Source of the DNA: Acidimicrobiia bacterium
Lineage (GTDB): Bacteria; Actinomycetota; Acidimicrobiia; Spongiisociales; ZC4RG35
Direction: 5' to 3'
NCBI GenBank assembly: GCA_041748855.1
Contig: JBGTCK010000017.1
Location: 8,124 to 72,123, forward strand
DNA length: 64,000 nt
This document shows, one piece after another, positions 24,362-40,699 of this stretch (position 1 is the first letter of the stretch; each line of letters opens with the position of its first letter). Position numbers and translations under genes: made by a program. Below the pieces are notes generated by a model. That model saw only the letters and a list, made by a program, of their open reading frames with translations, did not search any database and was not told where the DNA came from.

Positions 24362-25117
24362 CTACTGGACTTCTGCTGTTAGCAACCGGTAGGCGGCGCG
24401 GCCTCGGGCAGCAGCCTCTGCCCCGAGAATCTGCCAGGCTGGATTGTCGGGGTCGTCCATCTCAGTCCGTGAGCGCAGACGCTGCCTGTCCTTACGGTCG
24501 AGTGCGGCAGCCACTCCCCCAGGATCATCCATGATGCTGAGCAGAAAGGCGAGGTCGGCTCTTTGGGCGTCGGGTGCATCATCGACTCCGACGGCTTCGG
24601 CCTTAGCAATGATGGCGCCCAGCAGCGATGGTCGAGGAACCAAACCTTCGGCATCACCAACACGCACTGGAACCAACTCGGTTCGAATGAGGGCTTGTGT
24701 GCCGCCTGGCACCTCCAGCGTCCTACCCGGCGGAGTGGTTGTCAGGTCGGCTCGCGGTCCAAGTCCTTCGGGTGCAAGCACGTCCACTGAGACGCCTTCG
24801 CGCTCATAGCGATGCGCCAGGCCGTCCGCCGAGAAACCTACAACTACAAAACCACGCTCCTCGATGGACTCGACAAAACTTCGGATCGCTCCGGTGACAA
24901 CTCGAGCGTCAACGAGCACATCGAGGTCAGTAGACACACGAGGAGGGCTCGCTGCCTGTTCGAGCGCGTGCAGGAAAACCATCTGTCCGCCGACGAGTGT
25001 CCACTCCCCTTTTCGCACTTCGGTCAGTTCGACAAGAGTTTCCCAAAGGTGGCGACTCTGGTCGGGATAGGTGGGCAACTCCACCGGTTCACGATCCAGC
25101 ACCGGCCACTCGGTCAT
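24362..25117 (-). CDS. AbiEii-like nucleotidyltransferase (putative type IV TA toxin)
   Basis: Minimal NTase motif LVGGQMVFLH...STDLDVLVD (hG[GS]...DhD); start at MTEWPV gives an ATGA overlap with the upstream gene. Confidence 0.5.
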   Translation of the reverse strand: MTEWPVLDREPVELPTYPDQSRHLWETLVELTEVRKGEWTLVGGQMVFLHALEQAASPPRVSTDLDVLVDARVVTGAIRSFVESIEERGFVVVGFSADGLAHRYEREGVSVDVLAPEGLGPRADLTTTPPGRTLEVPGGTQALIRTELVPVRVGDAEGLVPRPSLLGAIIAKAEAVGVDDAPDAQRADLAFLLSIMDDPGGVAAALDRKDRQRLRSRTEMDDPDNPAWQILGAEAAARGRAAYRLLTAEVQ

Positions 25118-25788
25118 CTTGCCTCCAGCCTTTCGAGAAGCGCTCTCCCAGCTCTCCTTGATCGCTTGTCCGAGGAGTCGAGGAGATCGATGGCCACGAC
25201 CGGAAGCGGCGCCACCTTTTGGTTGGGGTCGAAAGGCCACACCGCGTCGTCCACCACTCTGATGTAGACGTTTGGCTGGTCGGGGTCCGATTCGAGGGCA
25301 AGACGCCTCACGACACCGTCGACTTCTGAGGCCGCCAAGTACCCCTCAACGACATCTCCGGGAATGAGATCGGCGCGGTGCTCGTCGACAGCACTGGCTC
25401 CTGACCTCACGAAACCCGGTAGACCCGCCAGCCGATCCAACACTGAAGGGTGGGCGTAGAAGCGACGTTCGTCTCCTCGGGCTCGCAGCTTGGCCACGAC
25501 TGACTCCAGACCCTCTTCGAGTCGTCGTCTTGCCCGAAGTAGCTCTACCGCTGATACCTCCGGTTCGTCATCGTTGGCGAGAGCAAGCAGCGCCCAAGCG
25601 GACCTCGAACTCCAAGGTCGGCCCACGTCCTGTTGGCGTCGTTGCGCTTCACGAACCGATCCCCGCTCCACGATCCACGCCCGACCCACTTGTTCCCCAC
25701 GAAGTAGCCCGTCGGCAAGCATCTGGCGAACCCGCCTAGGGCTGACCGCCAGTTCTTCTGCTACTTCAGAAACACTCAGGAGCGACAT
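25114..25788 (-). CDS. AbiEi-like antitoxin (N-terminal wHTH transcriptional regulator)
   Basis: N-terminus MSLLSVSEVAEELAVSPRRVRQMLADGLL (HTH); 224 aa; translationally coupled to the downstream NTase. Confidence 0.5.
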   Translation of the reverse strand: MSLLSVSEVAEELAVSPRRVRQMLADGLLRGEQVGRAWIVERGSVREAQRRQQDVGRPWSSRSAWALLALANDDEPEVSAVELLRARRRLEEGLESVVAKLRARGDERRFYAHPSVLDRLAGLPGFVRSGASAVDEHRADLIPGDVVEGYLAASEVDGVVRRLALESDPDQPNVYIRVVDDAVWPFDPNQKVAPLPVVAIDLLDSSDKRSRRAGRALLERLEAR

Positions 25789-25890
25789 GATTTCATAATC
25801 CTACCGATATCGGTAGTATTATGTCAACACATCTGTTTAGCGGAGGGACCCCGGGAGATCGTCGAACAACAACACCATTTCGGAGAGCGG

Positions 25891-26147
25891 ATGGCTACAG
25901 GTTGGCTACACCCGAACCATTCGTACACAGGGGCGCATGTCGCATTTTTCCAAGTGCTACCTGAAGAAATTGGAGCTCCGCGGGTAGGACTCGAACCTAC
26001 AACCAATGGATTAACAGTCACGCCGATACCGTCCGTGTGGTCTCAACGGGTGTCGATTAGTGCCGTTCTGTCTACCTTTTCGGTCCGTGCGTGTTGGCTG
26101 ATGCTGTCCCGTGCGGTCTGGTATGGCTACACAAATGGCTACACCTG
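25891..26147. repeat. copy 3 of the tRNA-Asn-fragment repeat (TGGCTACA doublets on both sides)
   Basis: atggctacaggttggctacacc ... core ... atggctacacaaatggctacacctgcc. Confidence 0.75.
25976..26017 (-). pseudogene. tRNA-Asn(GUU) 3' fragment
   Basis: Identical in architecture to the fragment at 23728-23769. Confidence 0.6.
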
Positions 26148-26477
26148 CCCGAATGACCTAATTGCCACTCAGCGGTCGGCTGCTTGCATCCGCGACCACG
26201 ATACGTCAAGGAAATGGGGTGACGCGGCGCTCGCGATTCGGTCGAGTTCGGGTCGTCGCTGAGCTCGAGCTGGTGGTCACCGCCCCACCCCTCCGTCGCG
26301 ACCAGATTCCAATCTTGGGCGGGTCACATTGGGTCGTCGGAGGCTGAGCCGTCACGACGCGCGAGCCTCCACGAATGCACACCACGACCTATCTTCAGTT
26401 CGAGGTCCCGCGACCGATAATGGCCATGGTGAGTTCATGAAGCGAGGTCCGCAATCGACATCGTTCGTCTAATCCGA

Positions 26478-27563
26478 ATGACCGAGAAAGGAAGCAAGAC
26501 AGCGCTCTGGGCTGGGGTTGTGCTCCCTTCGCTCTTCCTGTTGTTCCCGCTTCTGCTCGGCTTGGCCACGATTGCGTTGTTGGTCGAAGCGGTATCGGGA
26601 GACGGTGAATGGGAGAAAGTCGGTGGCGCAGTGCTTTCCTTCGGCTTAGTCGCGTGGTTCATTGGAGCACCAGCTACGGAGGTCATTGGACAGGTCAGGC
26701 GGGAACGTACCCGCGACAAGGTGATGATCGACCGTCTTGGGTTAATCCTGCGAGCACACAGTGAACTCGATCAGGCAGAGGAACATCAAGATGGAGAGGC
26801 GGATGCTGAGAACGAGGACCCCGACGCTACATGGAGTACCGGGAGACGCGAGTTCGAAGAACCCGCCCTGGAGATCGACCCACCGGTCAGCCACCTCCTC
26901 GATCCAGAATCCGCTGGCGAGTCAGTAGCCTTTGAGCCGCAAGGCTCGGACGCGGCAGCTCCCGATGCCCTTTCGCCCTCGGCTGATACAGATGGCGGAC
27001 CTCGTCGACTAGACGAGAACGCCCAGGGCGAGTACGAGGTGTATCTCCTTGAGCGGTTGGCAGATGGGAGAGACTTTTTCTACTACCTTGACACGGCCAT
27101 CCAATTCGGGCTCAGATACCCCGGTAGGAGGTTTCATCACAGGTGGCCAGCCGCCTCAAATGCAGCGCTAACTAAGTACATCTCGAATCGTGATGACCTA
27201 GCCACCCCACAAGCGGCACAGGTGCTACGGGAGGTATACAGAGAGATTCAACCGCCAGAACTCGACACTGACCTTCAGGACTGGATCACGTCTGACGAAC
27301 CAGTCGACTCCCTCCTCCACGAAGTGGTTGTGACGACCGTGGGCGTCTTAGTGCGTAGAACGGGCGAACTAGACGATCTTGAACGCAAGAGGCAGGTGAT
27401 TTCCACTCGCGAGTTGGTTGCGGTGTCTCTGCTATCTGATGGCGACCCCAGGACCGAAGAAGTCGTCCACCGACTGGATGCCCACTACGAGGCTAGGCAC
27501 CTTAAAGATGAGCAGTACAACGAATTGAGAAGCTATGCCTTGAACCCTCGACCCTTTGGATAG
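26478..27563 (+). CDS. membrane protein: two N-terminal TM helices plus a large acidic cytoplasmic domain
   Basis: Hydrophobic stretches LWAGVVLPSLFLLFPLLLGLATIALLV and AVLSFGLVAWFIGA, followed by a D/E-rich region; no recognisable family. Confidence 0.45.
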   Translation: MTEKGSKTALWAGVVLPSLFLLFPLLLGLATIALLVEAVSGDGEWEKVGGAVLSFGLVAWFIGAPATEVIGQVRRERTRDKVMIDRLGLILRAHSELDQAEEHQDGEADAENEDPDATWSTGRREFEEPALEIDPPVSHLLDPESAGESVAFEPQGSDAAAPDALSPSADTDGGPRRLDENAQGEYEVYLLERLADGRDFFYYLDTAIQFGLRYPGRRFHHRWPAASNAALTKYISNRDDLATPQAAQVLREVYREIQPPELDTDLQDWITSDEPVDSLLHEVVVTTVGVLVRRTGELDDLERKRQVISTRELVAVSLLSDGDPRTEEVVHRLDAHYEARHLKDEQYNELRSYALNPRPFG

Positions 27564-27695
27564 GCGCACGCACACCGCCATGTATAAGGGGGGGTTCCCT
27601 CCACGGCCACCCTGAACGAGCGGTCGAGCGAGACTAGGTGCGTATGCGCTCTCGGCAAACGACTCTTTGCCGTAGTACGGGCCTACCCAATGGGC

Positions 27696-28223
27696 CTACC
27701 CAATGACGGGTGATCCGCCAGCTAACCCTTTGAGCCCATCGGGATATCTCTGGATCGATGCCGCCAGGTTCGCCGCCACAACGGGGTCGGCCTCATTCGC
27801 GTTGAGCCAGACACGCGCGGAGGTTGTCAGGTCTCTGCAGAACCACCGGACGTCAATGTTGATGACGTCCCCCATGACGTTGAGGTGAAACACGTTCGAA
27901 GAGTTGCCTGGTTCGTAGAAGACGACTCGTGAGTAACCACCCGGATGGCCGCCCGTCCTGGCCTGGTGAAGAAGCGAGCACCGAAACCCATATGCGGCTC
28001 CACCAGAGAAGAACGGCTCGTCCATGCGCGGAAGCTTGTGGCCATAGATGTCCGGCATGTTCTCGTCGAACCAGGCGGCATAGCGCTCTCCTGTCGCCAC
28101 GCCCGACTCGTGTCCGAGAGCGCCGAAGATGTCAGGAATGGCGAGGGCCGACACAAGCGCGACGTAGTAGTGGCCCCCATCGAGGGCGCCGTCTACCTGA
28201 TCGAGAAAATCACGCATGGTCAC
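27696..28223 (-). CDS. hypothetical protein
   Basis: 175-aa ORF, divergent from 28372..29208; coding-like composition; no family recognised. Confidence 0.4.
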   Translation of the reverse strand: MTMRDFLDQVDGALDGGHYYVALVSALAIPDIFGALGHESGVATGERYAAWFDENMPDIYGHKLPRMDEPFFSGGAAYGFRCSLLHQARTGGHPGGYSRVVFYEPGNSSNVFHLNVMGDVINIDVRWFCRDLTTSARVWLNANEADPVVAANLAASIQRYPDGLKGLAGGSPVIG

Positions 28224-28371
28224 TCGTCAGCCAAGTTATATCGAGGTCGACCGTATCGTGAGCGCCACCAAAGCACGCATTCGGCACATATCGGCGCCGG
28301 GGGTAGGCGCTCAGCCGGTCAGGTGGACAAGACGCGTGTGATCCGGAGTCTGTCGGTGGTATCTCGTAACA

Positions 28372-29208
28372 TTGGGCCCCATGGGGACGATAAATCGTCA
28401 TGACGCCCGTTCTCTCCCTGATGATGAGCGGTTAGCGAGAGAGGTGGTCGCGCCCCACATTGACTCGATCTTAGTGGCCCTCCCGGAACCGGGTAACGAA
28501 CCCACCCCCGACTTCGAGATGTGTCGGGACGGAAAGCGCGTCGGATGGCTGGAGGTAACCACCGGGACCGACCAAGCGTCGCAAACACTCAACGCTCAGC
28601 TCGAGGAGGCGGGTCGTAGGCGGCGGACTACCCGCCGTCTCCGGTGCGACTGGTTTCTACAGTTGACACCCGATTCCAATCTCCGAACACTGAACGAAGA
28701 GCGACTTTTCGACGCCCTCGCGTTAAGGGAGCCAACTTTGACTCCCTACCCAACCGCGATGATGGACCCGATCAGCATCCCTGAGTCTGACGCCATCCTC
28801 GCCAAATTCCACGTCGCCCGCGCTAATCCGTTGAACGCATCAGACGGCGACGAAGCCACGGTGCTCCTCGACATCAGCGGACAGATGAATAGGGTCGATG
28901 CGGACACGATCAATCGGCTCGCAGAACAACGGTGCGATGCCAAGCGCCCGCAGCTCGAAGGTCGACAGGGTGAGCGTCACCTCTTTGTCCGGGTCGATAA
29001 GTGGGAGCGGAGCGGAGCAGGCGTAGCAATGCACGGATTCGGTGACAACGAACCCCCGGTGCCCTACGAGGGTCCCACCTTCCCTGAGTGGGTTAGCGAC
29101 GTTTGGTTGCTGAACACCGTCGGGCAACCGAAACTCTGGCATTGCTCCCAGGCGACCGAGGCATGGAAGATCTACGACATCGATCCGGCGGTATTCAAGA
29201 GCGGGTAG
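28372..29208 (+). CDS. hypothetical protein
   Basis: 278-aa ORF; no family recognised. Confidence 0.4.
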   Translation: MGPMGTINRHDARSLPDDERLAREVVAPHIDSILVALPEPGNEPTPDFEMCRDGKRVGWLEVTTGTDQASQTLNAQLEEAGRRRRTTRRLRCDWFLQLTPDSNLRTLNEERLFDALALREPTLTPYPTAMMDPISIPESDAILAKFHVARANPLNASDGDEATVLLDISGQMNRVDADTINRLAEQRCDAKRPQLEGRQGERHLFVRVDKWERSGAGVAMHGFGDNEPPVPYEGPTFPEWVSDVWLLNTVGQPKLWHCSQATEAWKIYDIDPAVFKSG

Positions 29209-29479
29209 CCCAGATGCCACCCGACTGGCAATCCGTAGCGAGTAGAAGAACCCCCCGGCTCACCCGACCTCACTGAGATGCTTGGACGGCGTATCGGAGG
29301 GTTCTCTGCGTCCAGGGAATCGTTTGTGAATGTGACACCGCGGACGGACGGAACCCTACACGCCTGCAGAGGTGGGGGGTAACTCTGAAATCCCCTGCCC
29401 ATCCCTGCCCGTACCTGTAATCACCATGGAGATTCGGCATCCTGACCCGCATCGACTCGCTTCGTTCGCCGCACGGCTT

Positions 29480-29520
29480 AGTACCGACATCTCGGAACTG
29501 AGTACCGACATCTCGGAACT
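29480..29520. repeat. tandem duplication of a 21-bp unit (agtaccgacatctcggaactg)
   Basis: Two adjacent near-identical copies read directly from the sequence. Confidence 0.8.
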
Positions 29521-29907
29521 AACGCTTGACAATGGCGTGACGTATTCGGTGGCCCACATCGGCATGTATGTGGTGCAGTCGCTCACTTTCATCGCCCGAT
29601 GGGCTTGCATTTCGACAGGAAAAGAATCTGCCAGGGTGAAGGATTGACCGATTGAGATTTTTTAATCAATGATTCTCGCCGAGAGCTACGAGGATGATCC
29701 AGATTGGCAAAGGCGTCCTATTAGGTAGGTAGGAGAATCGGGTGCCTCTGGCCCCGTATTGCGTCGGCCCTAGAGGACCGGGAGACCGGTGCCCAGGCGA
29801 ACTCTGCGATGAGGGGAAGGAAGCAGGCTGGCATGAACAAGTCCGCTGCACGCAGTTGTACTTGAATTCGTACACCTGAGTACCTAGATTCGTACCTAGG
29901 AGGCGTG

Positions 29908-31773
29908 TCATGGCGTGTCGTTTTTGGAAGCTGTTGCCTGTTGTTGGGAGGATTTGTCAGGTTCTGGATCACAACCCAGGTAGCCGTCGGGGCATCGGGG
30001 CCGATGAGGACAGGGGTCGAGTTCTGGTGGAGGGGCGACCCCGCCGTCTTCTCCGGTTTGCGTCCTAAAACCGGGGTCCCATCCCAGGCTCTCTCGTTGC
30101 CTGACGGCGGCTCCGTAGGTTCCGTACTCCCGAGCCAGGCGATCGAGATCCTCTACGTTTTGGATTGTGGCGACGATTCCATGTTCAGTCTCAGCGACGA
30201 GGTCACCTTCGATCAGTTTCCTGACGTGTCTTCCGACCGTGGCTGGACTGACTCCCATCTCCGTAGCAATCGCCCTCCGCGACGGCTGTGCACCTATCAT
30301 CAGAAGCTCAAGTATCCGCCACCCGTTCTTTCCAATGCCGTAGTGGTATGAGTATCGGTGCCAGTTCGTAATGTATTTGCCTCGGACGGGGCCTCTAAAG
30401 AGGTCGTGTCCGATTGGGAGCTGGGGGTGTTGCAATACCTGAACGACTCCCCCATCCAAAGTAGGTGTGGACTCGTTCAGATCTTGCAATGCTGTTTGAG
30501 GTATCTGCAGTCTCCACCTGCTGGGTCGTTGTATCGAGTCACCCTTAAATAGAAGTTGGACCCATCCCCTGTGTTGCAACTCCTTTAGAGCTGTCATGAC
30601 AGTTTCGCTGCTTGAATAGCCGGCTTCCTGTTTGATACCCCTTACTCCTTTGGCGAAGTTGCTGGGTCCACCGGTACGCATTGCGATGCGGATAAGTGCT
30701 TCGAGGACTGTGATTTGTCGTTTTCCGGAGTGTCCTGACCACTTGAGGCTGTGTGCGACCACGCGGAGCTCGGTCAGATACTCCATCGCTTCTTCTCGGT
30801 TGTTGAAGGGGCTTTTCGATGGGCGAGGGTTCTGCGATCCTCTTTTCAGGCCACTGCGGATGGTGGGTTCTGCTTCAGTCCAGCTAAGTCCACACAAGGA
30901 AGCAGCCTCCTCGAGGTAGTGCCAGAAGATGTCTTCGTCTAGCCCGCCCTTTCCAACCAGTTCCCCGAGGGCACAAGAGGAGACAAAGAGCTGCTGGTTC
31001 CGCGTTCCCCTTTTTGCAGTCGCTGTCTTCTCGTACTCCCCTGCCACCGCAGCCCATACATATGGAGTGACTCCTTGAGGGGCGGGGAGGGCCTGCAGGT
31101 CGGCCACTAGGCCCTCGGTGAGCGCTGAGGGAAGTTCGGGGATCCTTCGATCAATATTTGTGGTCCACTCATAGACCGACCCGCTGACGTGGCGGCTTGG
31201 AGGCGCCGCAACATACCCGCCCCTCCCCCTCACGTCGATACCGGGAAAGCCATCGAGCACCGGCAGCGAGTTCCCGACTCGCCAGCCGTCAGCTCGAAAG
31301 TAGAGGTGGCGGCCACCTCCACCTGTCTGAACTTCGGCGGTCTCCGGCCAGGTGCCATAGGTCTCGACAAAGTGTCGCTCTGAGTCGTCGGACCCATGGC
31401 GCGGATCGAAGTCGAGGACGACCAATTCTCCAGTTGCTATCGCGAGATTGGAGTTCGGCGATCCCTTGAACACCTGGCGCATCAAGTATGCGTTGGAACT
31501 GGCGGCCTTACGCCATCCTCTCCGCCGGGGGTGTTTCCCCGGGCTCTCGCACTTGGAACCTCTCGGACACTCACATATCAAAGCTCCGTCGCTTTGGACG
31601 ACGCCGAACAGCATCACCATTCGCATGCTGAGGCGCGAGTACTGGTCAATCGCTGCGATGGTGGAAGTCAGATGATTGTCGTCGGGTGGCTTGCTCGTTT
31701 CACTCATAGCTCGAACAGTGCACCAAGCGGCGCGTATACTCCAGTAGACGAGCGTTACTTGACCGTGACGCAT
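29908..31773 (-). CDS. bifunctional DNA primase/polymerase (Prim-Pol) replication protein with C-terminal wHTH
   Basis: Prim-Pol N-terminal domain (LFGVVQSDGALICECPRGSKCESPGKHPRRRGW...DVRGRGGYVAAPPS); C-terminal MarR-like RRAIATEMGVSPATVGRHVRKL; gene GC content is visibly lower than the surroundings. Confidence 0.75.
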   Translation of the reverse strand: MRHGQVTLVYWSIRAAWCTVRAMSETSKPPDDNHLTSTIAAIDQYSRLSMRMVMLFGVVQSDGALICECPRGSKCESPGKHPRRRGWRKAASSNAYLMRQVFKGSPNSNLAIATGELVVLDFDPRHGSDDSERHFVETYGTWPETAEVQTGGGGRHLYFRADGWRVGNSLPVLDGFPGIDVRGRGGYVAAPPSRHVSGSVYEWTTNIDRRIPELPSALTEGLVADLQALPAPQGVTPYVWAAVAGEYEKTATAKRGTRNQQLFVSSCALGELVGKGGLDEDIFWHYLEEAASLCGLSWTEAEPTIRSGLKRGSQNPRPSKSPFNNREEAMEYLTELRVVAHSLKWSGHSGKRQITVLEALIRIAMRTGGPSNFAKGVRGIKQEAGYSSSETVMTALKELQHRGWVQLLFKGDSIQRPSRWRLQIPQTALQDLNESTPTLDGGVVQVLQHPQLPIGHDLFRGPVRGKYITNWHRYSYHYGIGKNGWRILELLMIGAQPSRRAIATEMGVSPATVGRHVRKLIEGDLVAETEHGIVATIQNVEDLDRLAREYGTYGAAVRQRESLGWDPGFRTQTGEDGGVAPPPELDPCPHRPRCPDGYLGCDPEPDKSSQQQATASKNDTP

Positions 31774-31900
31774 TGCGCGGGAACAATTTTTCGTCTTGGG
31801 GACCCGCCTTGATCAGAGTGAACCCTGTCCCCGAGAACGGTGCGGGGTCGACGAGGTTTGAAAACAATGAACGCAAACGAGCGTGATATGAAAGGCCCCC

Positions 31901-32800
31901 ATGGACCCGTTCTTGAGCCGAATCATCGGACTTGTTGCAACGCCGGTGCCGGTGAACGCCACGTCATACCAACTCCCCACCGAGGTGAAACTTGAGGAGA
32001 CCCTCGACGGCTGGGTGCTCGCCTGGCGTCGCGGCGGTCGGCGGAAGCAAGTCGGCGCCAGCAACGAACAATTGCTAGCCGAGTTCATGTCTCTGCAGGA
32101 CTCCGAGCCGGACCAAATCGCCGAGTTCGCATCTGAGTGGGGAGCCCTGCAACTCTGTAAACACGGCAAACCCCAGTCTCATTTACCTTGGCGTCTTTGG
32201 ACCGAACTCGACGAATTAGAAGCTGCACCCTGCGATGTGAACCGGGCCTATCCCGGAGGATGGAGACGCGAACCAATCTCTCGGTGGAATCACTATTCGT
32301 CGCAGGCAGGAGCCATCCGTCGCCTGGGGCGCAACCTAAGCTCCGGGAACTCGATCTCAATTGTGGATCTCGAACCCATGGAAGATCTATTTCCGCCCTA
32401 CTTCCTCGACCGGACAATTCCCGGAATTAGCGAACCGATCTCCGAGCCACCTGAATTCACCCGGCAGGATCATGAGAGGGTCCTGGCGACCGCTCTCCAC
32501 AGTTGGTTAGGTATGGGCGATGTCGGTTTCCATGTGAATTGGCGAGAGGGCAAGAGCTCAGTTCAATTCGGTGGTACCGGACTGTTCGGAGCTCTAGCCC
32601 TCCAACTGACACTCGTCTGCACCGGTGCCGGCGCGCTCTTCTTGTGTTCCGAATGCAGACTGCCCTACATCCCCGAACAGCAACCTCGCTCAGGTGAAAG
32701 GAACTACTGCCTCGACTGCCGCGATAAAGGCATACCTGCGAGAAACCGCCAGCGTGCACTACGCGCCCGACTTCGCGCTGAACGAAAATCTGAGATGTAA
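31901..32800 (+). CDS. hypothetical protein with C-terminal Cys4 zinc ribbon
   Basis: CSECRLPY...NYCLDCRDKG; divergent from the prim-pol gene. Confidence 0.4.
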   Translation: MDPFLSRIIGLVATPVPVNATSYQLPTEVKLEETLDGWVLAWRRGGRRKQVGASNEQLLAEFMSLQDSEPDQIAEFASEWGALQLCKHGKPQSHLPWRLWTELDELEAAPCDVNRAYPGGWRREPISRWNHYSSQAGAIRRLGRNLSSGNSISIVDLEPMEDLFPPYFLDRTIPGISEPISEPPEFTRQDHERVLATALHSWLGMGDVGFHVNWREGKSSVQFGGTGLFGALALQLTLVCTGAGALFLCSECRLPYIPEQQPRSGERNYCLDCRDKGIPARNRQRALRARLRAERKSEM

Positions 32801-32954
32801 CGCTCAAGTCACGGTCAACACCTGGACTTCTGCGCTTCGGTTGGCCACAGTGACCTCGGAAGGCGTAACACAGAGACGAGGAAAATTGAGCAACCGAACT
32901 ACAGGAGCGACGATCCCGCCGGAAACCGAGGATGTGCCGCTAGATCCAGACACG

Positions 32955-33188
32955 ATGCTGGCCGACTGGCTTCGGCATACCAGTGCACTAACCGTGCCAG
33001 TCTCCGCAGCAGCGGAGATCCTCGGAATCGGACGCACCACCGCGTATGAGTCAGCAAAGAGGGGTGAGATCCCATCGCTGCGACTAGGACGGCGGCTGGT
33101 GGTGCCCGTCGAGGGGCTCCGCGCGATGCTCGGTGTCCGGTTCGTTGGCCAGGGTGAGGTCGTCCCCAACCCAGAGCTGGGAGATTAA
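32955..33188 (+). CDS. xis: excisionase/Xis-like HTH DNA-binding protein
   Basis: LTVPVSAAAEILGIGRTTAYESAKRGEIPSLRLGRRLVVP is the canonical MerR-type excisionase HTH; start chosen at MLADW. Confidence 0.6.
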   Translation: MLADWLRHTSALTVPVSAAAEILGIGRTTAYESAKRGEIPSLRLGRRLVVPVEGLRAMLGVRFVGQGEVVPNPELGD

Positions 33189-33346
33189 AAAATGTCGCCA
33201 GCGAAAGACATCGTTTCGCGACCAATGGACTGGCTGTCACACGTTCCGTCAACCACTACCAGCAGAAACTGGGGATGTGTAGCCGGATGTGTAGCCATAG
33301 CCCGCCAAATCCGGCTCACGCAGTCCTCTCCGACCCAAGATGATCG

Positions 33347-34090
33347 GTGTCGGTCGTGACGGTGGACCAGGGACCAGCACGCCGTTCCGCGGAAGTAACG
33401 GACACGGCCACCCGCCTGAGCTTCGGTCCTCGTCTCTGTCGGGTTGAGGCCACCATTGTGGGCCCCAGGATGAAGCCGACGCCCCCGGGTTCTTCTGCAA
33501 TCCTGCGCTGGGCAAGGTATGCAGACGACTGGGAGACGCACCGAAGCCTCCCACTTGAACTAACCACCGGCGAACTCGGGGGCATCCTCCATGAGATCGA
33601 CGCCCAACTGACGCATGATCGCACACTCCTATCAGAGGAACAAGAGCACGAGCCTGAATGGCTTTCCGGCGGTTGGTATGACCTACTCGGTTTGGTTCAA
33701 GAAGTCCAGAGCCTGGTCGTGACAGCAAAGGAGTCGGAAGGTCAACTTGTTCCGATCTCCGTCGTGGTGCTTCCCTGGGACGACCCACTACTTCTCCCCG
33801 ATGACGGACCACAGAGCGAAGGTATCTGCGAGCAGACCGCCGATGACAGCGGATTCACCGTCAAGCTAAGTGAGTTCGCAACACCGTTCACGGTGATCCA
33901 TGCGTTTGCTCACATCCTGAACCCAGGAGACTCACAGCGGTTCGCCCACGACCGCGATTGGTTCTTCTGCTTCCTTGCCCTGGCGCTGAGGCGGTATGAG
34001 GGAGTCGAAATCAGCGGCTTGTTGGCTTCCCGAGATCCTGCTCGCCTTGTCCGCGCCCTCGAACGCCTGCCCGTCAACCGGTTCGGTTGA
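33347..34090 (+). CDS. hypothetical protein
   Basis: 247-aa ORF between xis and int. Confidence 0.35.
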   Translation: MSVVTVDQGPARRSAEVTDTATRLSFGPRLCRVEATIVGPRMKPTPPGSSAILRWARYADDWETHRSLPLELTTGELGGILHEIDAQLTHDRTLLSEEQEHEPEWLSGGWYDLLGLVQEVQSLVVTAKESEGQLVPISVVVLPWDDPLLLPDDGPQSEGICEQTADDSGFTVKLSEFATPFTVIHAFAHILNPGDSQRFAHDRDWFFCFLALALRRYEGVEISGLLASRDPARLVRALERLPVNRFG

Positions 34091-34322
34091 CCACGCCCAT
34101 GTCACGTGTACGTCCTCTCGACATGTCCAACATTTTGCAAAGAGCTCACCTCCGCGACCGCGGCCTAGCTAAGCCGAATAGCCGTCCTCTGATATCCAAC
34201 TTGAGGGAACCAGCGGGGAGCCTGTCACACGTCAGCCCAGCCGTTGCTGGCAGAAGCCGGGACCGTAGGGCCCGATCCTGTGAAGTCCTGCTCTCGAAGA
34301 TCCGTCGGACCCGGCATGATCG

Positions 34323-35492
34323 GTGCCGAGCATGACGGTATACAAACGATCCGGAGCGAAGTCTTGGTCCGTCCTAGTGGAATTCGGACGCGGCGCTGGC
34401 CACCGTCGTCGCGTTTATGAAGGAGGCTTCCGCACCAAACGTGAGGCGCTTGCGAGGGAAGTCGCGATCAAGGGAGACATGGCGAACGGCAGCTGGGTTG
34501 ACCTCTCAAACACGACCGTCGGCGACTACATGAAGAGCTGGCTTCATCAGCACGGCCACAACCTCAAGCCGACCACGGTCCAGTCCTATTCGGCAAACCT
34601 GAGGAATCATGTACTCCCCCAGCTCGGCCACATCCAACTCCAAGAACTCACCGCTGCACACCTTAACGACTTCTATGCCACGCTCCTCACCCAAGGACGA
34701 GTCAAGACCGGGTCTGACAAGGGCGGACCCCTGTCACCAACCACAGTCCGCTACATCGCCACCATCGTTGGAAAGAGCCTCCAAGACGCCCTCGAATCGG
34801 GTCTCGTTATCCGCAACGTCGCAGTCGCCGCACGCAAACCGCGCACGAGTCGAGAGGCGAACCAGAAAGTAAAGACCTGGTCCGGGCCTGAAGTGGCACG
34901 GTTCCTCGAATCCACATCCGAGGACCGACTTCACCCACTTTGGGTGCTCTACGCGACAACAGGACTCCGCCGGGGAGAAGCGCTAGGACTCCGATGGGAA
35001 GATATCGACCTCTCCCGCGGCCAGGCTTCCATACGCCACAACCTCGTAGTCGTGCGAGGCGGCCTCGAGTTCGGATCTCCGAAAAGTGGACGAGGCAGGC
35101 ACATCTCCTTGGCAACACAAACTGTCAACGCCCTCAGAGCATGGCGAGCTACTCAGGTAGCCGAAAAGCTGGCAATCGGCGCCGTATGGGCGGACCCACT
35201 AGGCCTTGTGTTTACACGCGAGGACGGATCGCCCATTCACCCAGACCGAGTCACCGACGCCTTCCGACGCAGCCAGAAGACCACTGAACTCCCAAAGATC
35301 ACGCTGCACCAGTTACGCCACACGTGGGCAACACTCGCCCTCCAAGCAGGCGTTCAGCCCAAGATCGTGAGTGAAAACCTGGGGCACTCTTCAATTCGCA
35401 TCACCATGGACATTTACAGCCATGTCTTACCCACAATGACATCTGACGCCGTCGCAAGGGTGGCCGATGCAATCTATGGGCAAGATTTATGA
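34323..35492 (+). CDS. int: tyrosine-type site-specific integrase
   Basis: N-terminal SAM-like domain; C-terminal catalytic LRHTWATLALQAGV...LGHSSIRITMDIYSHV (R..HxxR..Y). Confidence 0.9.
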   Translation: MPSMTVYKRSGAKSWSVLVEFGRGAGHRRRVYEGGFRTKREALAREVAIKGDMANGSWVDLSNTTVGDYMKSWLHQHGHNLKPTTVQSYSANLRNHVLPQLGHIQLQELTAAHLNDFYATLLTQGRVKTGSDKGGPLSPTTVRYIATIVGKSLQDALESGLVIRNVAVAARKPRTSREANQKVKTWSGPEVARFLESTSEDRLHPLWVLYATTGLRRGEALGLRWEDIDLSRGQASIRHNLVVVRGGLEFGSPKSGRGRHISLATQTVNALRAWRATQVAEKLAIGAVWADPLGLVFTREDGSPIHPDRVTDAFRRSQKTTELPKITLHQLRHTWATLALQAGVQPKIVSENLGHSSIRITMDIYSHVLPTMTSDAVARVADAIYGQDL

Positions 35493-35776
35493 CCTCTGAG
35501 AGTTGGATTCCGCACGCATCACCGGGGCCGACCCGAAACGAAATTCGTGAAATGATCCTTGCCTATGTGGACGTTCCGAAAGCCATCGACCATTTCGCAG
35601 TTGAGGGCGAATTGGACACTTTCGATTTGTGGTGGTTCTTCGACGATCATCGAATAATGGCTAACGCAAACGCATGGCTCATGGCGATGCTATGGGAGGA
35701 CTCGTTGAGCGATCCTGAGGAAGAGCTTCTGGCTGATCCATCCTTTTGGGAGTGGTTCGACCATGGGCGCCGATAG
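35489..35776 (+). CDS. hypothetical small protein
   Basis: ATGA overlap with the int stop codon; 95 aa, acidic. Confidence 0.35.
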   Translation: MTSESWIPHASPGPTRNEIREMILAYVDVPKAIDHFAVEGELDTFDLWWFFDDHRIMANANAWLMAMLWEDSLSDPEEELLADPSFWEWFDHGRR

Positions 35777-35856
35777 ACTGTATTCCCAGCAACGAGCCAG
35801 ATGATTGACTCGGCCCGCTCATTTCAGACCCATCTCGTGTGGTGGGCGGTGGAGGC

Positions 35857-36246
35857 TCAGCCGTAACAACCAGCTGTCTCCATTCGGGCGTCGATGCGGC
35901 TCATCAGACTGCTTAGCCACCGCATCGCATCGAGCTGAGACTGATTGCCGTGAGCGTTATCTGCCATGTCGAACCAAGACTGGAGGTTGCTGCAGTCGTT
36001 CTCGGTGGCGACCCACCCGTCGATGTTCTGGAACACCTCCGGGACCACGAAAGTAGCCGTGCTAGGTGCAGGGGACGTTGGCACAATATTGGTATCTGGC
36101 GACTCGGAATCGTCGCCATCGAAGATGAGTGCAACGACCACGAGCACACCGATACCGACCAGTAGCAAACGCCGGGTCCGGTTCATCCTTGGACCTCCAC
36201 TCGACTGTCGGACGTGCTCGTCGAAATCTCTCTTATCGAAGCTCAT
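35857..36246 (-). CDS. membrane-anchored hypothetical protein
   Basis: Single TM helix RLLLVGIGVLVVVALIF. Confidence 0.35.
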   Translation of the reverse strand: MSFDKRDFDEHVRQSSGGPRMNRTRRLLLVGIGVLVVVALIFDGDDSESPDTNIVPTSPAPSTATFVVPEVFQNIDGWVATENDCSNLQSWFDMADNAHGNQSQLDAMRWLSSLMSRIDARMETAGCYG

Positions 36247-36541
36247 GGCTGCATATCCGACTCTACCAACACCCCCTGGCAGTCAGGATTCAGCTACGCC
36301 CGGCTCGATTCGCCCGCTCCCGACGCCTATCTGAGCAGTAGCGGGCAACAGGTAACCAGCAGAGCGAGTACATATTCGCCGCCTGGCCAGCAACATGGGT
36401 CCGCCCGTTTCTCTTCCAGCGCACAACACGGAAGGCGACCAGACCGGGCGGCCAATCAGCACAGAATGAGCTCGCTCGATCCAGCTATCTGACGGACGCT
36501 CGTTTCCCCGGTGCAACTCGGTGCCCTACCAACCACGACTA

Positions 36542-38260
36542 CTAGAAGCCTGCGACGTCCGCCGTGAAATATTCGTCGGCGACCGAGCGGTCAATGACCA
36601 CCGGAGTGATCGCTCCACCAACGGGGATGACCGCCGTCGTGAGTTCGCCGGTAGAGAGGCGGTAGTGCCAGATCGGAGTAGTTCCTTCACCGTATGAATA
36701 CCCGGTGGCGAACAGCTGGTCGTTGTCAGGCGCCCACGTCACGAAATGGATCGGGCCGGACCCTGGATCGGCGAAGGTCGTCGTTACTCCCGACTCCCGG
36801 TCGAGTAGGAGAACCGAGGCGCCGTTGAACGCGTCCCCCAACGGGGCGACGATCGCCGCCAGATAGCGGCCATCGTCGGAGAAAGCGTTTTCGCCGAACC
36901 TCATACCCTCAGGTGCGTCGTACCGCTGAGAAGTCAGGTCGGAAGTGTTGGTGAGGTTGAGTATGTCGCAAGGTTCGCTGCACCAAGCAAGCGTGTCGCC
37001 GGAGACGTCGTGAGCAAAACCAGGTCCCCCTCCCAATAGCGTCCGGACTTCACCGGTAGTCCCATCCCATAGTTCGATTCCCTCGTCAGAAGACAACGCG
37101 AGACCACCGTCGATACCAAACACGGGAAGGGAATCAGAGTTCAGCTCCCTGGGTTCGGACGTGGTCTCGCCAGCCGAGTTCACCTGCCATACCGTTGGCC
37201 TGCCCAAGCCGACCCGACCTCCCGGATAATCGACCAGCCAGACGTTGGTCTCAGTGGCCGACGGAACGAACGCTGTGGCGGAACCCAGTGAAAGGCTTTG
37301 ACGGGTTGCAATATCGACTGCGTAGATGTTCTCCCAGCCAACCACCAACTTGTCGCCAATCCGGACCATTGAGAATGCCTCATCTCCAGGCCGCTGGCCC
37401 TCCACGAGACTCGCCGCCGCGCGCCTGGCATCAGGGTCGAAAGCAATCAGCCCCTCGAGTCCGTCGTCCAAGAGAAGGACCATCCCGGTCTCCTCTCCAA
37501 AGATTGGGCCATCAGCAGGCACTTGAGCAGCCAGGGTGGTGGTCGTTGGTGCGGTGGTGGCTACGGTGGTTGCCGGCCCGACGTTCTCGTCCTCTACCCA
37601 GACGACATAGCTGAGTGATGACCCTTTGTATTCGGCGGTCAGGCTCCAGCATCCAGAATCGGGAAAATCGAGTCCGACTACGGTCACCGACTCGTGCGTC
37701 GGCTGCGTCATGAAAGGATTGAATCCGGTTCCACCCGTCTGACTCGCTTCGAACTGCGGAGCGGTTCCACTGAGATGTTCGGCTGTGACAGTGAACTCGC
37801 CAGGGTCGTCCGCCGAGTAGTTCGCACTCCACCAAAACGTTCTCTCAGTAAGGGAGCCGTCAGCGCCTTTTGGTAGGTCACTCCAGACCTCGCCGCCAGG
37901 GTCGATCAGCGTCCAAAGGTCGGGTGTACCGAACCACACATCGTCATACACTTCCGGTGGATCGTCGGGAGCGGCGCTTGCAGGAGTGAAGGCGGCCTCT
38001 CCCGGCACCGTGACCGGGCACGACGCCGGCACACCAGCCACTGTCGGAGAGACGACAGGCCCATCGGGAGTCTCGCCCGGGGACCAGACAAGGGCGATCA
38101 CCACGAACCCCACCACCGTTACTGCTGCCAATGACCACGCCGAAACCAGACTGGTGCGCCGTCTTCGTGACAGAAGTCGGGTAAAAGCCGGTCGCTCTGC
38201 TTGGCGTCCGATCTCGGCGGCGTACTTCCCGGCGTGGGAGGCAATCTCCTCAAAGCTCAT
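36542..38260 (-). CDS. putative anti-sigma factor with extracytoplasmic beta-propeller-like domain
   Basis: Short cytoplasmic N-terminus, single TM helix (LVSAWSLAAVTVVGFVVIALV), then a large extracellular domain; directly downstream of an ECF sigma factor; start chosen at MSFEEIA. Confidence 0.5.
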   Translation of the reverse strand: MSFEEIASHAGKYAAEIGRQAERPAFTRLLSRRRRTSLVSAWSLAAVTVVGFVVIALVWSPGETPDGPVVSPTVAGVPASCPVTVPGEAAFTPASAAPDDPPEVYDDVWFGTPDLWTLIDPGGEVWSDLPKGADGSLTERTFWWSANYSADDPGEFTVTAEHLSGTAPQFEASQTGGTGFNPFMTQPTHESVTVVGLDFPDSGCWSLTAEYKGSSLSYVVWVEDENVGPATTVATTAPTTTTLAAQVPADGPIFGEETGMVLLLDDGLEGLIAFDPDARRAAASLVEGQRPGDEAFSMVRIGDKLVVGWENIYAVDIATRQSLSLGSATAFVPSATETNVWLVDYPGGRVGLGRPTVWQVNSAGETTSEPRELNSDSLPVFGIDGGLALSSDEGIELWDGTTGEVRTLLGGGPGFAHDVSGDTLAWCSEPCDILNLTNTSDLTSQRYDAPEGMRFGENAFSDDGRYLAAIVAPLGDAFNGASVLLLDRESGVTTTFADPGSGPIHFVTWAPDNDQLFATGYSYGEGTTPIWHYRLSTGELTTAVIPVGGAITPVVIDRSVADEYFTADVAGF

Positions 38261-38780
38261 GATCGACCAAACCCTTGGCTGCCAGTTCTCGGTGCAATCT
38301 CGCCCGCCCTTGATGAAGGAGCGCTTTGACTGTCCCCTCGGCGATACCCAGAGTGTTCGCAACCTCGGAGATGGAAAGATCCTCGATGTAGTGCAGGGCA
38401 ATCGCTTGGGCCTGTCGAGATGGAAGACGTCTCACTTCCCTCCAGAAGTCCTCAGACCCCAAATCGGCATGCTGAGTCGAGATCGCGCCCTCAGGTCCGA
38501 TTCTCAACCTTGCCCTAGTCTCGGACCGCAACCGGCGAAGCCACGAACGAGCAAGATTCATGGCCACCCGCCGTACCCAGCCATCAGGACGATCCATCTC
38601 CGACACCCGCGTCCAATCCCTGTGAGCACGGAGGAAAGCCTCCTGAGCAAGATCCTCCGCAACGCTGCGGCTACCACTCAAGGCGTAGACCAAGCCAACC
38701 ACCGCCGCGTAGTTCTCGCGATAAAGGACTTCGAACGAATCGGGGACCCGAACGTCAGCCACATCATCCGATTCGAACAT
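38250..38780 (-). CDS. ECF (sigma-70 family) RNA polymerase sigma factor
   Basis: Region 2 (LAQEAFLRAHRDW) and region 4 HTH (LSISEVANTLGIAEGTVKALLHQGRARL). Confidence 0.8.
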   Translation of the reverse strand: MFESDDVADVRVPDSFEVLYRENYAAVVGLVYALSGSRSVAEDLAQEAFLRAHRDWTRVSEMDRPDGWVRRVAMNLARSWLRRLRSETRARLRIGPEGAISTQHADLGSEDFWREVRRLPSRQAQAIALHYIEDLSISEVANTLGIAEGTVKALLHQGRARLHRELAAKGLVDHEL

Positions 38781-39258
38781 CCAACCTCACTAGTCCGAAG
38801 ACACATCACACACTAAGAACGCTTTGACCAGCTGGAAGGTTTAGACGAATCCTCACGAAACTCCATGCGACCCACTGAATCGTTGAGCTAGTGCCAGTAT
38901 TGCCCAGGACATCAGCGGGCCGTGGTGGTCTGCAACTACTGCGGAAGGGATATCCCAAAAGAGTACCCCGTTCCGCAACCTTGGACTGCCAGCGATAGGT
39001 ATCCCATGATCGGCTGTTGTGCTGGATTTTGGGAAACGGATGGCTACACACATGCCTACACCTGCCGTGAGAGTCTGTGCATCCTTGCTACGGAGCGAAA
39101 TTGGCCACGGGCACTGGCCTGAGTGGCATATGGTCGGATGTCACGCCCCGCCCGCTAGCTGCTAGTCACCGGGGTTCGCCGGGACGGGGATGATGGCGTC
39201 TGGTTTGATGAACGTGGCGTGAGCCGGGTCGTGGCAGCTGGCGCGGTCAGCCCGGCGA

Positions 39259-39978
39259 CTACGTCCGCTGAGCTGCTCGAATCAGCAACAAACTCATCTC
39301 TTCCCGTACCGAGCGAAGGTCGATCCTTCGATGGCGCGGGAAGCTTTGGCATCCAATCACCAACTCGTCTTCACCCACCGCCAAGCTATCAACCCCACCC
39401 CAAGGGACCTGACTTTCGGTGAGGGTCTTGTCGCTTCGCCCCCCTGCTCGGACTACGAATTCTCGTTCGCCTAGAGGTGCGTCCAAGTGTCCCCGAAGCG
39501 CCCACTTCTTATCGCTATCGGCGCACTGCCTCACGTCGTCGAAAGCCCAATAGTGAAGCCCAACCGTGACCGTTTCGTCTGTCTCCTCCACGACAAAGCG
39601 ATCGATCACACATTCCTCCGACAGCCTGAACCCCACAGTGATATACGGTTCGTCGGGATTCGACAGAATCACGCCTTCGGTAAGCCACCCACCACCTTCT
39701 CGTGGTTCCACGGTGGGAGCCCTCTCCCATTCGAAATCTGGGTTCCCGACGCAGTTCGGCGGATCGGGCTGAGCAGTCGATTGAGTGATCTCGCATTGGG
39801 CATAAGGGTCCCCAGTTGTCTCACCTTCAGAATTCGTAACCGGGGATGAGGAAGACGATCCCGTCGGGCTGGTGGTTGAGGCGGAGGCGTCATCCGGACT
39901 CAAAGACGTTGGGGCACCAGAACCGGTACAGCCAACTAGGAACACCGCCAAACAGAAGACCCAGACAACGGTTCGCAT
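39259..39978 (-). CDS. lipoprotein, hypothetical
   Basis: MRTVVWVFCLAVFLVGC lipobox; Ser/Thr-rich linker. Confidence 0.5.
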   Translation of the reverse strand: MRTVVWVFCLAVFLVGCTGSGAPTSLSPDDASASTTSPTGSSSSSPVTNSEGETTGDPYAQCEITQSTAQPDPPNCVGNPDFEWERAPTVEPREGGGWLTEGVILSNPDEPYITVGFRLSEECVIDRFVVEETDETVTVGLHYWAFDDVRQCADSDKKWALRGHLDAPLGEREFVVRAGGRSDKTLTESQVPWGGVDSLAVGEDELVIGCQSFPRHRRIDLRSVREEMSLLLIRAAQRT

Positions 39979-40067
39979 AACGCTGAGATGTTACCGAATG
40001 TCTGTTTGGTTCCCTACAGCGCACAAAGCGCGCCGCGAACCTCCGAATCACCCAGATCACCCGCGCG

Positions 40068-40140
40068 CAATCCGGCAGTTCCGAACCGCACGCCGACGTG
40101 CCGATCTGCTCGGTTCGAGGACGGGTGCGTTATCGCTCGA
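40068..40140. repeat. intergenic repeat family 2, copy A
   Basis: tccggcagttccgaaccgcacgccgacgtgccgatctgctcggttcg...tgcgttatcgctc; 8-bp inverted arms ccgaaccg/cggttcgg around a 21-nt spacer. Confidence 0.7.
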
Positions 40141-40185
40141 GATCGGTGGATATCGAGTGAAGTCACTTTGGTGGTCCGACCAGGA

Positions 40186-40602
40186 TCAGTAGATGTGGGT
40201 TGCCTCGACCCATCGAACAGATGCCCAGATACCAAGTCCGGACGCGACGATCATTACGTAGAAGGCGACTCCAAGAGATGACCCGACCCCGCCTCTCGCC
40301 GCCACGCCAACAGCAAATAGGGCGAATAATCCTGCAGCGACACTCAAACCGAAGATTGCCCAGCGAGCTAGTCGGTTCTTAGGTGCCGCCACGCCCACGC
40401 CAGCCACAACCAGGCCAGCGACCAGTTGTAGTCCTCCAAGTCCGGCGACGTACGCTCCACTTAATCCATCACTCGTCCACGGCAATAGTCCAGAAGCTGC
40501 AAGGGCCACTCCTGCTACCACAGCGGCGCTCCGCGTCAGCATGGATAGAACCCTAATGCCAGACACTCGATCCGCTCTGGAACGGCAGTTTCCGAACCCC
40601 AC
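40186..40602 (-). CDS. integral membrane protein (4 TM)
   Basis: Four hydrophobic helices in 138 aa. Confidence 0.5.
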   Translation of the reverse strand: MGFGNCRSRADRVSGIRVLSMLTRSAAVVAGVALAASGLLPWTSDGLSGAYVAGLGGLQLVAGLVVAGVGVAAPKNRLARWAIFGLSVAAGLFALFAVGVAARGGVGSSLGVAFYVMIVASGLGIWASVRWVEATHIY

Positions 40603-40650
40603 GCCGACGTGCCGATATCGGGCACTCCCTGAAATGCTCGTTATGGCTCA
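40581..40650. repeat. intergenic repeat family 2, copy B (divergent)
   Basis: ggcagtttccgaaccccacgccgacgtgccgat...ctcgttatggctc. Confidence 0.55.
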
Positions 40651-40699
40651 GGAAGTTGATCTAGCGCAACCACCCGGCCGTGAGTAGCGTCCAATCAGG

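Follow-up and report, generated by a model that had tools for sequence, protein, structure and literature searches.

A non-conjugative island element that probably targets tRNA-Asn(GTT), and its tandem array of att junctions, in an Acidimicrobiia contig

What kind of element is represented by the low-G+C gene block at positions 29,209 to 35,776 of a 64,000-nt stretch from an Acidimicrobiia bacterium (GenBank assembly GCA_041748855.1, contig JBGTCK010000017.1; the whole stretch is referred to as the window)? The block of 6.6 kb encodes a primase-polymerase (Prim-Pol) replicase with winged-helix (wHTH) domains, a hypothetical protein, an excisionase (Xis)-like helix-turn-helix (HTH) protein, a second hypothetical protein and a tyrosine integrase (Int). 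An initial annotation, which was made from the sequence alone, regarded it as the remnant of an actinomycete integrative and conjugative element (AICE) that had kept its integration and replication core. The gene set was confirmed at these coordinates by Pfam profiles, and its interpretation as the integration/replication core of an integrative element is borne out by the profiles and by a syntenic core in related contigs. However, the bounds of 29.2-35.8 kb turned out to be too narrow since the element extends from 25.9-26.1 kb to 39.06 or 45.77 kb. The comparisons described below make it probable that the block is the core of a larger, non-conjugative element, which targets the 3' end of tRNA-Asn(GTT) and is the youngest in an array. 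The kind of element, a genomic island, is ordinary; its family is undescribed. Gene functions were assigned by profile searches (Pfam, NCBIfam and PHROG), PADLOC was also run on the cargo genes, and tRNA genes were searched for across the window using ARAGORN and Rfam (gathering threshold, and E values up to 1). Int relatives with 48-76% identity were taken from a large protein collection and the contigs carrying them were then inspected. The part of the window from 27,606-37,840 is reproduced exactly by the independent Logan assembly contig L001.

The extent of the element can be deduced from a short motif, TGGCTACAC, of which seven tandem doublets are present in the window, as compared to none in 100 shuffles. 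Three junction units of about 250 bp at 22.5, 23.6 and 25.9 kb (J1, J2 and J3; Table 1) are 88-91% identical to each other. On the plus strand, such a unit consists of an arm A doublet with 11-bp spacing, about 64 nt, a core of 45 nt, about 105 nt and an arm B doublet with 12-bp spacing. Read in reverse complement, the core corresponds to the part of tRNA-Asn(GTT) that runs from the anticodon stem up to the 3' end. In J3, the core (25975-26019) lies between an arm A doublet at 25892-25911 and an arm B doublet at 26124-26144; it can be aligned with positions 30-74 of a genuine tRNA-Asn and matches the intact tRNA-Asn genes of the metagenome contigs L215, L220 and L225 with 100% identity. J2 comprises an arm A doublet (23647-23666), a tRNA-Asn 3' fragment (23727-23771) and an arm B doublet (23875-23895), and J1 comprises a degenerate arm A without a doublet, a tRNA-Asn 3' fragment (22563-22606) and an arm B with a truncated doublet (22706-22726). 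The lambda-like integrases of actinobacteriophages have an attP core with paired arm-type sites on both sides (PMC10865867), and elements that have integrated in tandem into one tRNA gene are known to be separated by a copy of att (PMC2440964).

The left end of the element is J3 (25,892-26,144) and the right end lies at either 39,061 or 45,765, giving a length of 13 or 19.7 kb. At 39004-39061, only the outer flank and the doublet of an arm A could be recognised, the inner arm and the core being indistinct (z=1.6 for the inner part, which is not significant). The complete arm A at 45685-45765 stops exactly where the tRNA-Asn core would be expected to start, and neither core similarity nor a tRNA follows beyond 45765. 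Likewise, the sequences beside the doublets at 39041, 33277 and 45765 do not significantly resemble the core or arm B. The region from 39259 to 45645 is either a part of the Int-bearing element or a separate integrase-less element. The absence of flanking att repeats, as stated in the initial annotation, holds for 29.2-36.5 kb, where a search for direct repeats of at least 15 bp returned 15-mers at chance level only; att copies are nevertheless present further out, at 25,892-26,144, 39,004-39,061 and 45,685-45,765. Since neither ARAGORN nor Rfam detected a complete tRNA in the window, the tRNA pieces are fragments only, and a search of the window for the 5' half of tRNA-Asn gave nothing above chance. 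Because the core on the tRNA side and the tRNA gene are absent, excision by recombination between attL and attR is not possible as the sequence stands, and the element is probably immobilised here. To this extent the term remnant is appropriate; however, the catalytic motifs of Int and Prim-Pol have been kept.

The arrangement of the att copies indicates that earlier insertions form a tandem array and that the Int-bearing element lies at its youngest end, next to the tRNA side. This order fits repeated integration into the tRNA gene because the best junctions and the Int-bearing element lie on the tRNA side, while degraded copies are located at 22.5, 18.3 and 10.9 kb, the att copies being increasingly degenerate leftward. 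The outermost relics are an arm B at 18288-18323 and a tRNA-Asn fragment at 10899-10924, which suggests that the insertion hotspot once reached back to about 10.9 kb. The genes for an ABC transporter, a PGA_cap protein and a hydrolase between the two relics may be old cargo.

If arm A is the tRNA-proximal end, some genomes are expected to carry arm A next to an intact tRNA-Asn gene. JGI metagenome contigs were therefore scanned for an arm A doublet followed by 50-78 nt and GCTCCGCGGG, and ARAGORN was run on the matches. In five contigs (L211, L215, L220, L225 and L226), arm A directly abuts an intact tRNA-Asn(GTT) gene on the complementary strand and in the predicted place; the full tRNA that is missing in the window is thus present there. 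Tandem junctions of the type arm A-core-arm B were found in four contigs (L210, L216, L219 and L221). Eight of the 17 matches to the pattern represent one unrelated coding sequence and were discarded. Several of the segments between the junctions in the metagenome contigs are short (1.9-4 kb) and lack an integrase gene, their cargo coding for a DUF998 protein, a methyltransferase, an amidohydrolase, an HxlR regulator and an alpha/beta hydrolase. The window contains counterparts in the form of two integrase-less segments of 0.9 kb and 2.0 kb. Tandem junctions around integrase-less cassettes are common. As the segments at 22.7-23.6 and 23.9-25.9 kb lie between intact junctions, they could be excised in trans. 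In Streptococcus thermophilus, ICESt1/ICESt3 and cis-mobilisable elements (CIMEs) form tandem arrays by site-specific integration next to a resident element, and the streptococcal CIMEs are integrase-less, att-bounded segments that can be excised by an Int acting in trans, which the window segments resemble. The ICESt1/ICESt3 system is conjugative and integrates into fda, whereas the element in the window has a tRNA target. Unlike in the streptococcal system, the cassettes here are 1-4 kb in size and both attP-type arms are kept at each junction. It is tempting to go further and to view the tRNA-Asn locus as an integron-like platform, in which an Int/Xis/Prim-Pol master element serves the integrase-less cassettes of 1-4 kb in trans. 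According to this doubtful idea, junction-bounded cassettes would be excised, circularised, reshuffled and recaptured at the tRNA gene, the doublet at the int promoter would provide feedback by Int, and the 299-aa protein would be a new accessory factor.

The contigs that carry close relatives of Int support the proposed anatomy of the element. The 10.5-kb contig L081 (Int 66-67% identical) starts within the tRNA-Asn core, which is followed by arm B, and at its other end arm A leads into the first part of the core. Its int gene is central and its cargo includes HEPN, GmrSD, Mrr, two DNA methylases and HNH. The left end of L083 shows a terminator hairpin, the core and arm B, followed by an element of more than 19 kb with AbiTii, a UvrD-type helicase together with an AAA ATPase, and type I restriction-modification genes as cargo, and L082 contains three tandem arm B units. 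The syntenic core, consisting of Prim-Pol on the minus strand, a protein of about 300 aa on the plus strand, Xis, the doublet and Int, is common to L086 and L227 and is partly present in L083 and L085. Within the elements of L081, L083 and L227, the core has cargo on both sides. Moreover, no transfer gene was found in L081, L083, L085, L086 and L227, which cover up to 21 kb. In L085, a direct repeat of about 290 bp (3376-3667 versus 10964-11252, 79-92% identical), comprising the 3' end of int and downstream sequence, is present in two copies that are separated by 7.6 kb. An earlier related element has apparently left this repeat as a relic; the L085 genome shares the tRNA-Asn sequence of the window.

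The question of whether the block is what remains of an AICE can be addressed with these contigs. The element in the window shares the tyrosine integrase, Xis, a replication gene and an attB site in the 3' end of a tRNA gene with AICEs such as pSAM2, SLP1 and pMEA300, and some AICEs carry proteins with a Prim-Pol domain, for instance pMEA100, pSE211 and pSE222 (PMC2440964). AICEs in tandem, separated by a copy of att, have been described as well (AICESav3728/3708), an arrangement that is also found here, and so are AICE remnants (PMC2440964). Furthermore, the host is probably an actinobacterium: among the species representatives of the Genome Taxonomy Database (GTDB), Int homologues are at most 41% identical and the best are found in metagenome-assembled genomes (MAGs) of Acidimicrobiia. 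However, the ORFs between 22.6 and 47.8 kb contain neither FtsK/TraB-type, terminase or helicase domains nor a Walker A motif (Pfam and motif search), as had been noticed before for the FtsK-like gene, and neither Pfam nor NCBIfam detected homologues of the Nudix hydrolase, Kor or Pra. Thus, judged by the sequence, an Int directed to a tRNA 3' end and a replication module are present, but the transfer protein and Nudix/Kor/Pra of an AICE are not, and the relatives do not carry FtsK/TraB, Spd, Nudix, Kor or Pra either; nor is int terminal here, unlike in AICEs. Phage Prim-Pols and those of small Streptomyces plasmids share only about 30% identity with the Prim-Pol of the window, over the N-terminal 40%. 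Because the att-bounded element of L081 also lacks a transfer gene, the absence of transfer genes is a trait of the family and not the result of decay. It is thus highly improbable that int, xis and rep were left behind in an AICE that lost its FtsK/TraB-type transfer and Spd genes, as had been proposed.

The integration and replication core appears to be intact. All catalytic residues of Int are kept according to the translation: the R (GLRRGE), the K, the HxxR motif (HQLRH), and the H and Y (GHSSIRITMDIYSH). Int scores 249 bits against phrog_1, the general phage integrase family, and it is not a chromosomal recombinase of the XerC/XerD type, since it reaches only 72 bits with TIGR02224 (cut-off 335) and 65 bits with TIGR02225 (cut-off 330). 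The arm-binding domain Arm-DNA-bind_4 (PF14657) is matched below the threshold in the Int of the window (19.1 bits versus a cut-off of 22.3) and with E values of 1e-5 or better in the Ints of L081, L085, L086 and L227. Prim-Pol, for which the gene caller places the start at 31707 (599 aa), retains the DxD and GGxH motifs, as read from the translation, and is 48% identical over the full length to the protein of L227 and 54% identical to that of L086. Both Prim-Pol and Int look intact from their sequences. Xis scores just below the cut-off of the excisionase model TIGR01764. The 299-aa protein is a hallmark of the element family. Its homologues occupy the equivalent position in L083, L086 and L227, and the large protein family, of which Pfam has no model, exceeds 3000 clusters when clustered at 50% identity. 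Invariant in the family are C86, H88, H94 and the cysteines of a CxxC...CxxC pattern at 249-273; C111 is nearly invariant. The AlphaFold (AF2) model of the protein is confident (pLDDT 88.7, pTM 0.79), and a Foldseek comparison with the PDB and BFVD returned no fold match. The leader and the first codons of int are duplicated by alignment (~33300-33360 and ~34270-34345), the copies flanking the unrelated ORF at 33347-34090. The same ORF insertion is present in L227 (Int 48% identical), in which a 38-aa relic of the int N-terminus has been retained (L227 12183-13066), and the insertion is therefore old and maintained. An 88-aa ORF in L083 occupies the position equivalent to that of the 95-aa ORF that overlaps the int stop codon; sequence similarity between the two was not detected.

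A further doublet of the arm motif lies in inverted orientation between xis and int (Table 1) and is a putative arm-type operator bound by Int. In the window, it is separated from int by 1.04 kb, which includes the ORF at 33347-34090. In six related contigs (L081, L082, L083, L086, L087 and L227), an inverted doublet of the form TGTGTAGCC-N3-TGTGTAGCC is located 65-118 bp upstream of the start of int; in L227, it precedes the start of the int relic. Altogether, conservation of the inverted doublet extends to seven relatives, with Int identities of 48-76%. A promoter scan of 33.1-34.4 kb revealed nothing. A conserved block 3' of xis (GACCAAYGGACAG.CAGTCACAC), which resembles the anticodon-arm part of the core, was considered as a pseudo-core and dropped, as in L082 and L083 it fails to follow the changes in the tRNA sequence of the host.

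The internal doublet also bears on whether the element could be restricted to the flagged 6.6 kb, the upstream att-like units then being derived from unrelated older elements. Such a restricted element, which would agree with the lack of a direct repeat bracketing 29.2-35.8 kb and with the boundary-like appearance of the largely non-coding gap of 700 bp at 29.2-29.9 kb, is extremely unlikely: the internal doublet links this Int family to the arm motif of the junctions, the related elements carry cargo on both sides of the core, and a low G+C content at third codon positions (GC3) extends from 26 to 46 kb. The flagged span has a G+C content of 58.2%, which places it in the lowest 1% of equal-sized windows and about 3 points below its flanks (61-62%). 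It had thus correctly been described as AT-richer than the flanks, but the low-G+C tract is wider. The region 26,145-45,684 has 58.8% G+C, and the GC3 of the genes in the tract is 0.60-0.68, as compared to 0.70-0.78 in chromosomal genes. The compositional signal, which covers about 26 to 46 kb and not only 29-36 kb, is real but modest, the G+C content being below that of the flanks and GC3 below that of chromosomal genes. The spacer downstream of Prim-Pol had also been put forward as an origin of replication. The AT-rich stretch and the short repeats on which this proposal was based are real (45-46% G+C at 29600-29750; GTACnTnnATTCGTAC present twice at 29858-29895); however, an origin at 29.6-29.9 kb lacks comparative support because L227 has no counterpart of the 29.2-29.9 kb spacer. 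A 21-bp tandem duplication (29477-29518) inside the small ORF at 29426-29647 encodes LSTDISE twice.

Several observations weigh against the interpretation of the block as the core of a larger tRNA-Asn-targeting element. There is no core at the right end, which leaves the right boundary ambiguous (39.06 or 45.77 kb). Int is located 8 kb from one end and 4-10 kb from the other end of the element, which is unusual for tRNA-targeting elements; in the distant homologues from the GTDB representatives, a convergent tRNA gene is typically found within 250 bp downstream of int. Both ends are seen in only one relative, L081, and the contig ends fit an integrated as well as a circular form. L227 has the core module and the internal doublet, but arm doublets and a tRNA-Asn core were not found in its 20.9 kb, and the internal doublet of L085 (Int 52-53% identical) is degenerate only. 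Finally, the doublets could be bound by a protein other than Int, such as Xis/HTH_17, the wHTH domains of Prim-Pol or a host regulator, and act as its operators, in which case their link with the tRNA fragments would be regulatory. One of the doublets indeed precedes int at a position like that of a promoter, isolated copies occur upstream of other genes (at 39041 for the ECF sigma factor gene and at 45685 for the gene at 44872-45645), and L227 keeps the internal doublet without arms. However, every junction has its doublets placed symmetrically around the core, at fixed distances of about 64 and about 105 nt, they also surround cores that read as other tRNAs in viral contigs, in which an integrase with an arm-binding N-terminus is the only shared gene, and the integrase-less cassettes retain them yet encode no HTH protein. 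Operators for another DNA-binding protein are therefore unlikely, and the assumption that Int recognises the upstream TGGCTACAC repeats is strongly supported by the comparison with the relatives, as far as sequence can tell.

The viral contigs were identified in IMG/VR. A scan for doublets was mostly non-specific, the informative contigs being only L091 (7280-7590), L164 (390-700) and L169 (8300-8620). In these contigs, GGCTACAC doublets surround 3' fragments of other tRNAs in an attP-like manner. Read by eye, the cores have Phe-, Thr- and Met/Ile-like anticodons, and the sites are about 1 kb away from integrases that are only 26-28% identical to the Int of the window. This layout indicates that the arm motif tracks a wider integrase clade while the core varies, as is expected of arm-type sites. 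In addition, the tRNA-Asn core of the window is associated with other integrases in two viral contigs. The tRNA-Asn reported by ARAGORN in L089 was rejected as a gene; it is a fragment with a non-canonical 5' half and probably an attP site. It may be argued from these contigs that Int, Xis and the primase have been left by, or parasitise, a temperate actinophage with a tRNA-Asn target, the element then being a decayed prophage or a phage satellite similar to the phage-inducible chromosomal islands (PICIs). Int, Prim-Pol and the product of the ORF at 27696-28223 match phage protein families, and the absence of transfer genes would fit a dependence on a helper. However, although Int and a primase are present, none of the PHROG matches is related to packaging; genes for a capsid, a terminase, a portal or packaging interference, and a nucleoside triphosphatase (NTPase), are lacking. 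The cargo of the relatives consists of restriction-modification, Abi, GmrSD, HEPN and metabolic genes, and IMG/VR contigs contain no close Int, the best being 35% identical. A phage satellite or a decayed prophage is thus improbable.

Tycheposons of Prochlorococcus appear to be the best functional analogue of the element (Hackl et al., bioRxiv 10.1101/2020.12.28.424599). Both combine a tyrosine recombinase, an excisionase and a primase-type replicase with variable cargo, both lack conjugation and capsid genes, and both integrate into tRNA 3' ends, with partial tRNAs at the flanks. Moreover, tandem arrays are formed in both cases, in which newcomers push older elements away from the tRNA gene and degenerate remnants build up an island. 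Unlike the tycheposons, the element described here belongs to a different host phylum (probably Acidimicrobiia), has a Prim-Pol without a helicase partner and carries int in the middle; arms of about 100 bp with doublets are present at every junction and an extra doublet is located at the int promoter. The full tRNA that accompanies the partial one in tycheposons is absent from the window. With respect to recombination, lambda/L5-type integrases are the closest model: N-terminal arm-binding (here a sub-threshold match), core-binding and catalytic domains, and pairs of direct-repeat arm sites on each side of a core that overlaps the 3' half of a tRNA gene are found in both (PMC10865867). Unlike in lambda/L5, an additional inverted pair is present here at the int promoter, kilobases away from attL and attR. 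A search for the arm motif TGGCTACAC in literature mentioning attP returned nothing relevant.

A possible mechanism follows from this comparison, its steps beyond the anatomy being taken over from the lambda/L5 paradigm (PMC10865867). The N-terminal domain of Int would bind the TGGCTACAC doublets flanking the 45-nt core, and the core-binding and catalytic domains would exchange strands within the tRNA-derived core. Xis would direct excision and Prim-Pol would replicate the resulting circle. By way of the third doublet, the inverted one upstream of int, Int would most likely repress or tune its own promoter. Because the element has neither an NTPase nor a transfer gene, its intercellular transfer would rely on a helper, which could be a phage or a conjugative element, or on vesicles.

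These results correct the annotation of the island, in that the element is two to three times larger than the flagged block and its att sites and the tRNA-Asn target have been identified. They also define a family of island elements that has not been described before. These elements of uncultured actinobacteria are non-conjugative and self-replicating and carry restriction-modification, Abi, GmrSD and HEPN cargo in the relatives, in parallel to the tycheposons of marine cyanobacteria. The clean arm motif, the third doublet with its conservation at the int promoter, the location of int in the middle and the arrays of integrase-less cassettes with complete junctions are of moderate interest. An integration tool for hosts resembling Acidimicrobiia could be built from the TGGCTACAC arm-site motif together with the tRNA-Asn attB site, and the arrays of integrase-less cassettes with intact junctions are a tractable case for studying accretion and mobilisation in trans.

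Table 1. Features of the element and its surroundings in the window
Feature	Position	Strand	Remarks
J1, oldest of the three junctions	22530-22726	-	91% identical to J3 over 205 bp
J2 att junction	23647-23895	-	88% identical to J3 over 262 bp
J3 att junction, left end of Int-bearing element	25892-26144	-	core = minus-strand tRNA-Asn(GTT) 3' part
Left cargo, three open reading frames (ORFs)	26478-27563, 27696-28223, 28372-29208	+, -, +	no Pfam, PADLOC or NCBIfam match
Mostly non-coding spacer 3' of Prim-Pol	29209-29907		73-aa ORF at 29426-29647 by Logan gene caller
Prim-Pol replicase, two winged-helix domains	29908-31773	-	PF09250 E=1e-31 and MarR/LexA-like wHTH
Conserved 299-aa protein, C-terminal zinc ribbon and basic helix	31901-32800	+	divergent from Prim-Pol
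Excisionase-like HTH_17 protein (Xis)	32754-33188	+	PF12728 E=1e-8; gene call from L001
Internal inverted TGGCTACAC doublet, 12-bp spacing	33277-33297	-	between xis and int
ORF between int leader and int	33347-34090	+	no Pfam family
Tyrosine integrase, heterobivalent-type	34332-35492	+	SAM_3 and Phage_integrase domains, arm-binding-like N-terminus
95-aa ORF overlapping int stop codon	35489-35776	+	no Pfam family
Right cargo: 129-aa ORF, 619-aa ORF, extracytoplasmic function (ECF) sigma factor (38250-38780)	35857-38780	-	
Arm A-type fragment (outer flank and doublet)	39004-39061	+	88% identical to L219 arm A over 58 nt
Further low-G+C cargo including a second ECF sigma factor (42752-43267)	39259-45645		
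Complete arm A, doublet with 11-bp spacing and ~60 nt inner arm	45685-45765	+	78-83% identical to J3/L219 arm A

PADLOC and NCBIfam searches of the cargo gave no matches, and the phage family matched by the product of the ORF at 27696-28223, phrog_18591, is of unknown function. The GC3 of the right cargo (0.62-0.67) is similar to that of the core genes, and no paralogy was detected among the ORFs that adjoin different junctions. Two ECF sigma factor genes are accompanied by large downstream partners without Pfam matches (36542-38780 and 41880-43267), and these pairs are possibly island cargo; similar sigma/partner pairs are located beside the related element in L085 (482-1788, 3752-6152 and 19048-21152). 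The integrase-less 2-kb segment contains an HTH_17 gene (224 aa; 25114-25823) with a near-perfect palindrome of 30 bp directly upstream (25794-25823), which could be the operator of this gene. A gene for a cyclase/NB-ARC/TPR protein (19787-22354) adjoins J1, the oldest junction of the window, and genes for guanylate-cyclase-domain proteins lie between att units in L082 (604-3332); signalling genes thus appear to recur in these arrays.

A second family of intergenic repeats, with copies at 40023-40138, 45994-46109, 41517-41584 and 40583-40616 that are 81-94% identical, has the core CCGGCAGTTCCGAAC.GCACGCCGACGTGCCGATCTGCTCGG. These repeats, which are unrelated to the att units, could represent a small element confined to the low-G+C tract and resembling miniature inverted-repeat transposable elements (MITEs) or repetitive extragenic palindromes (REPs). 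Outside the tract, two tandem copies of a 76-nt sequence, 84 bp apart from start to start and 93% identical, are present at 60608-60767.

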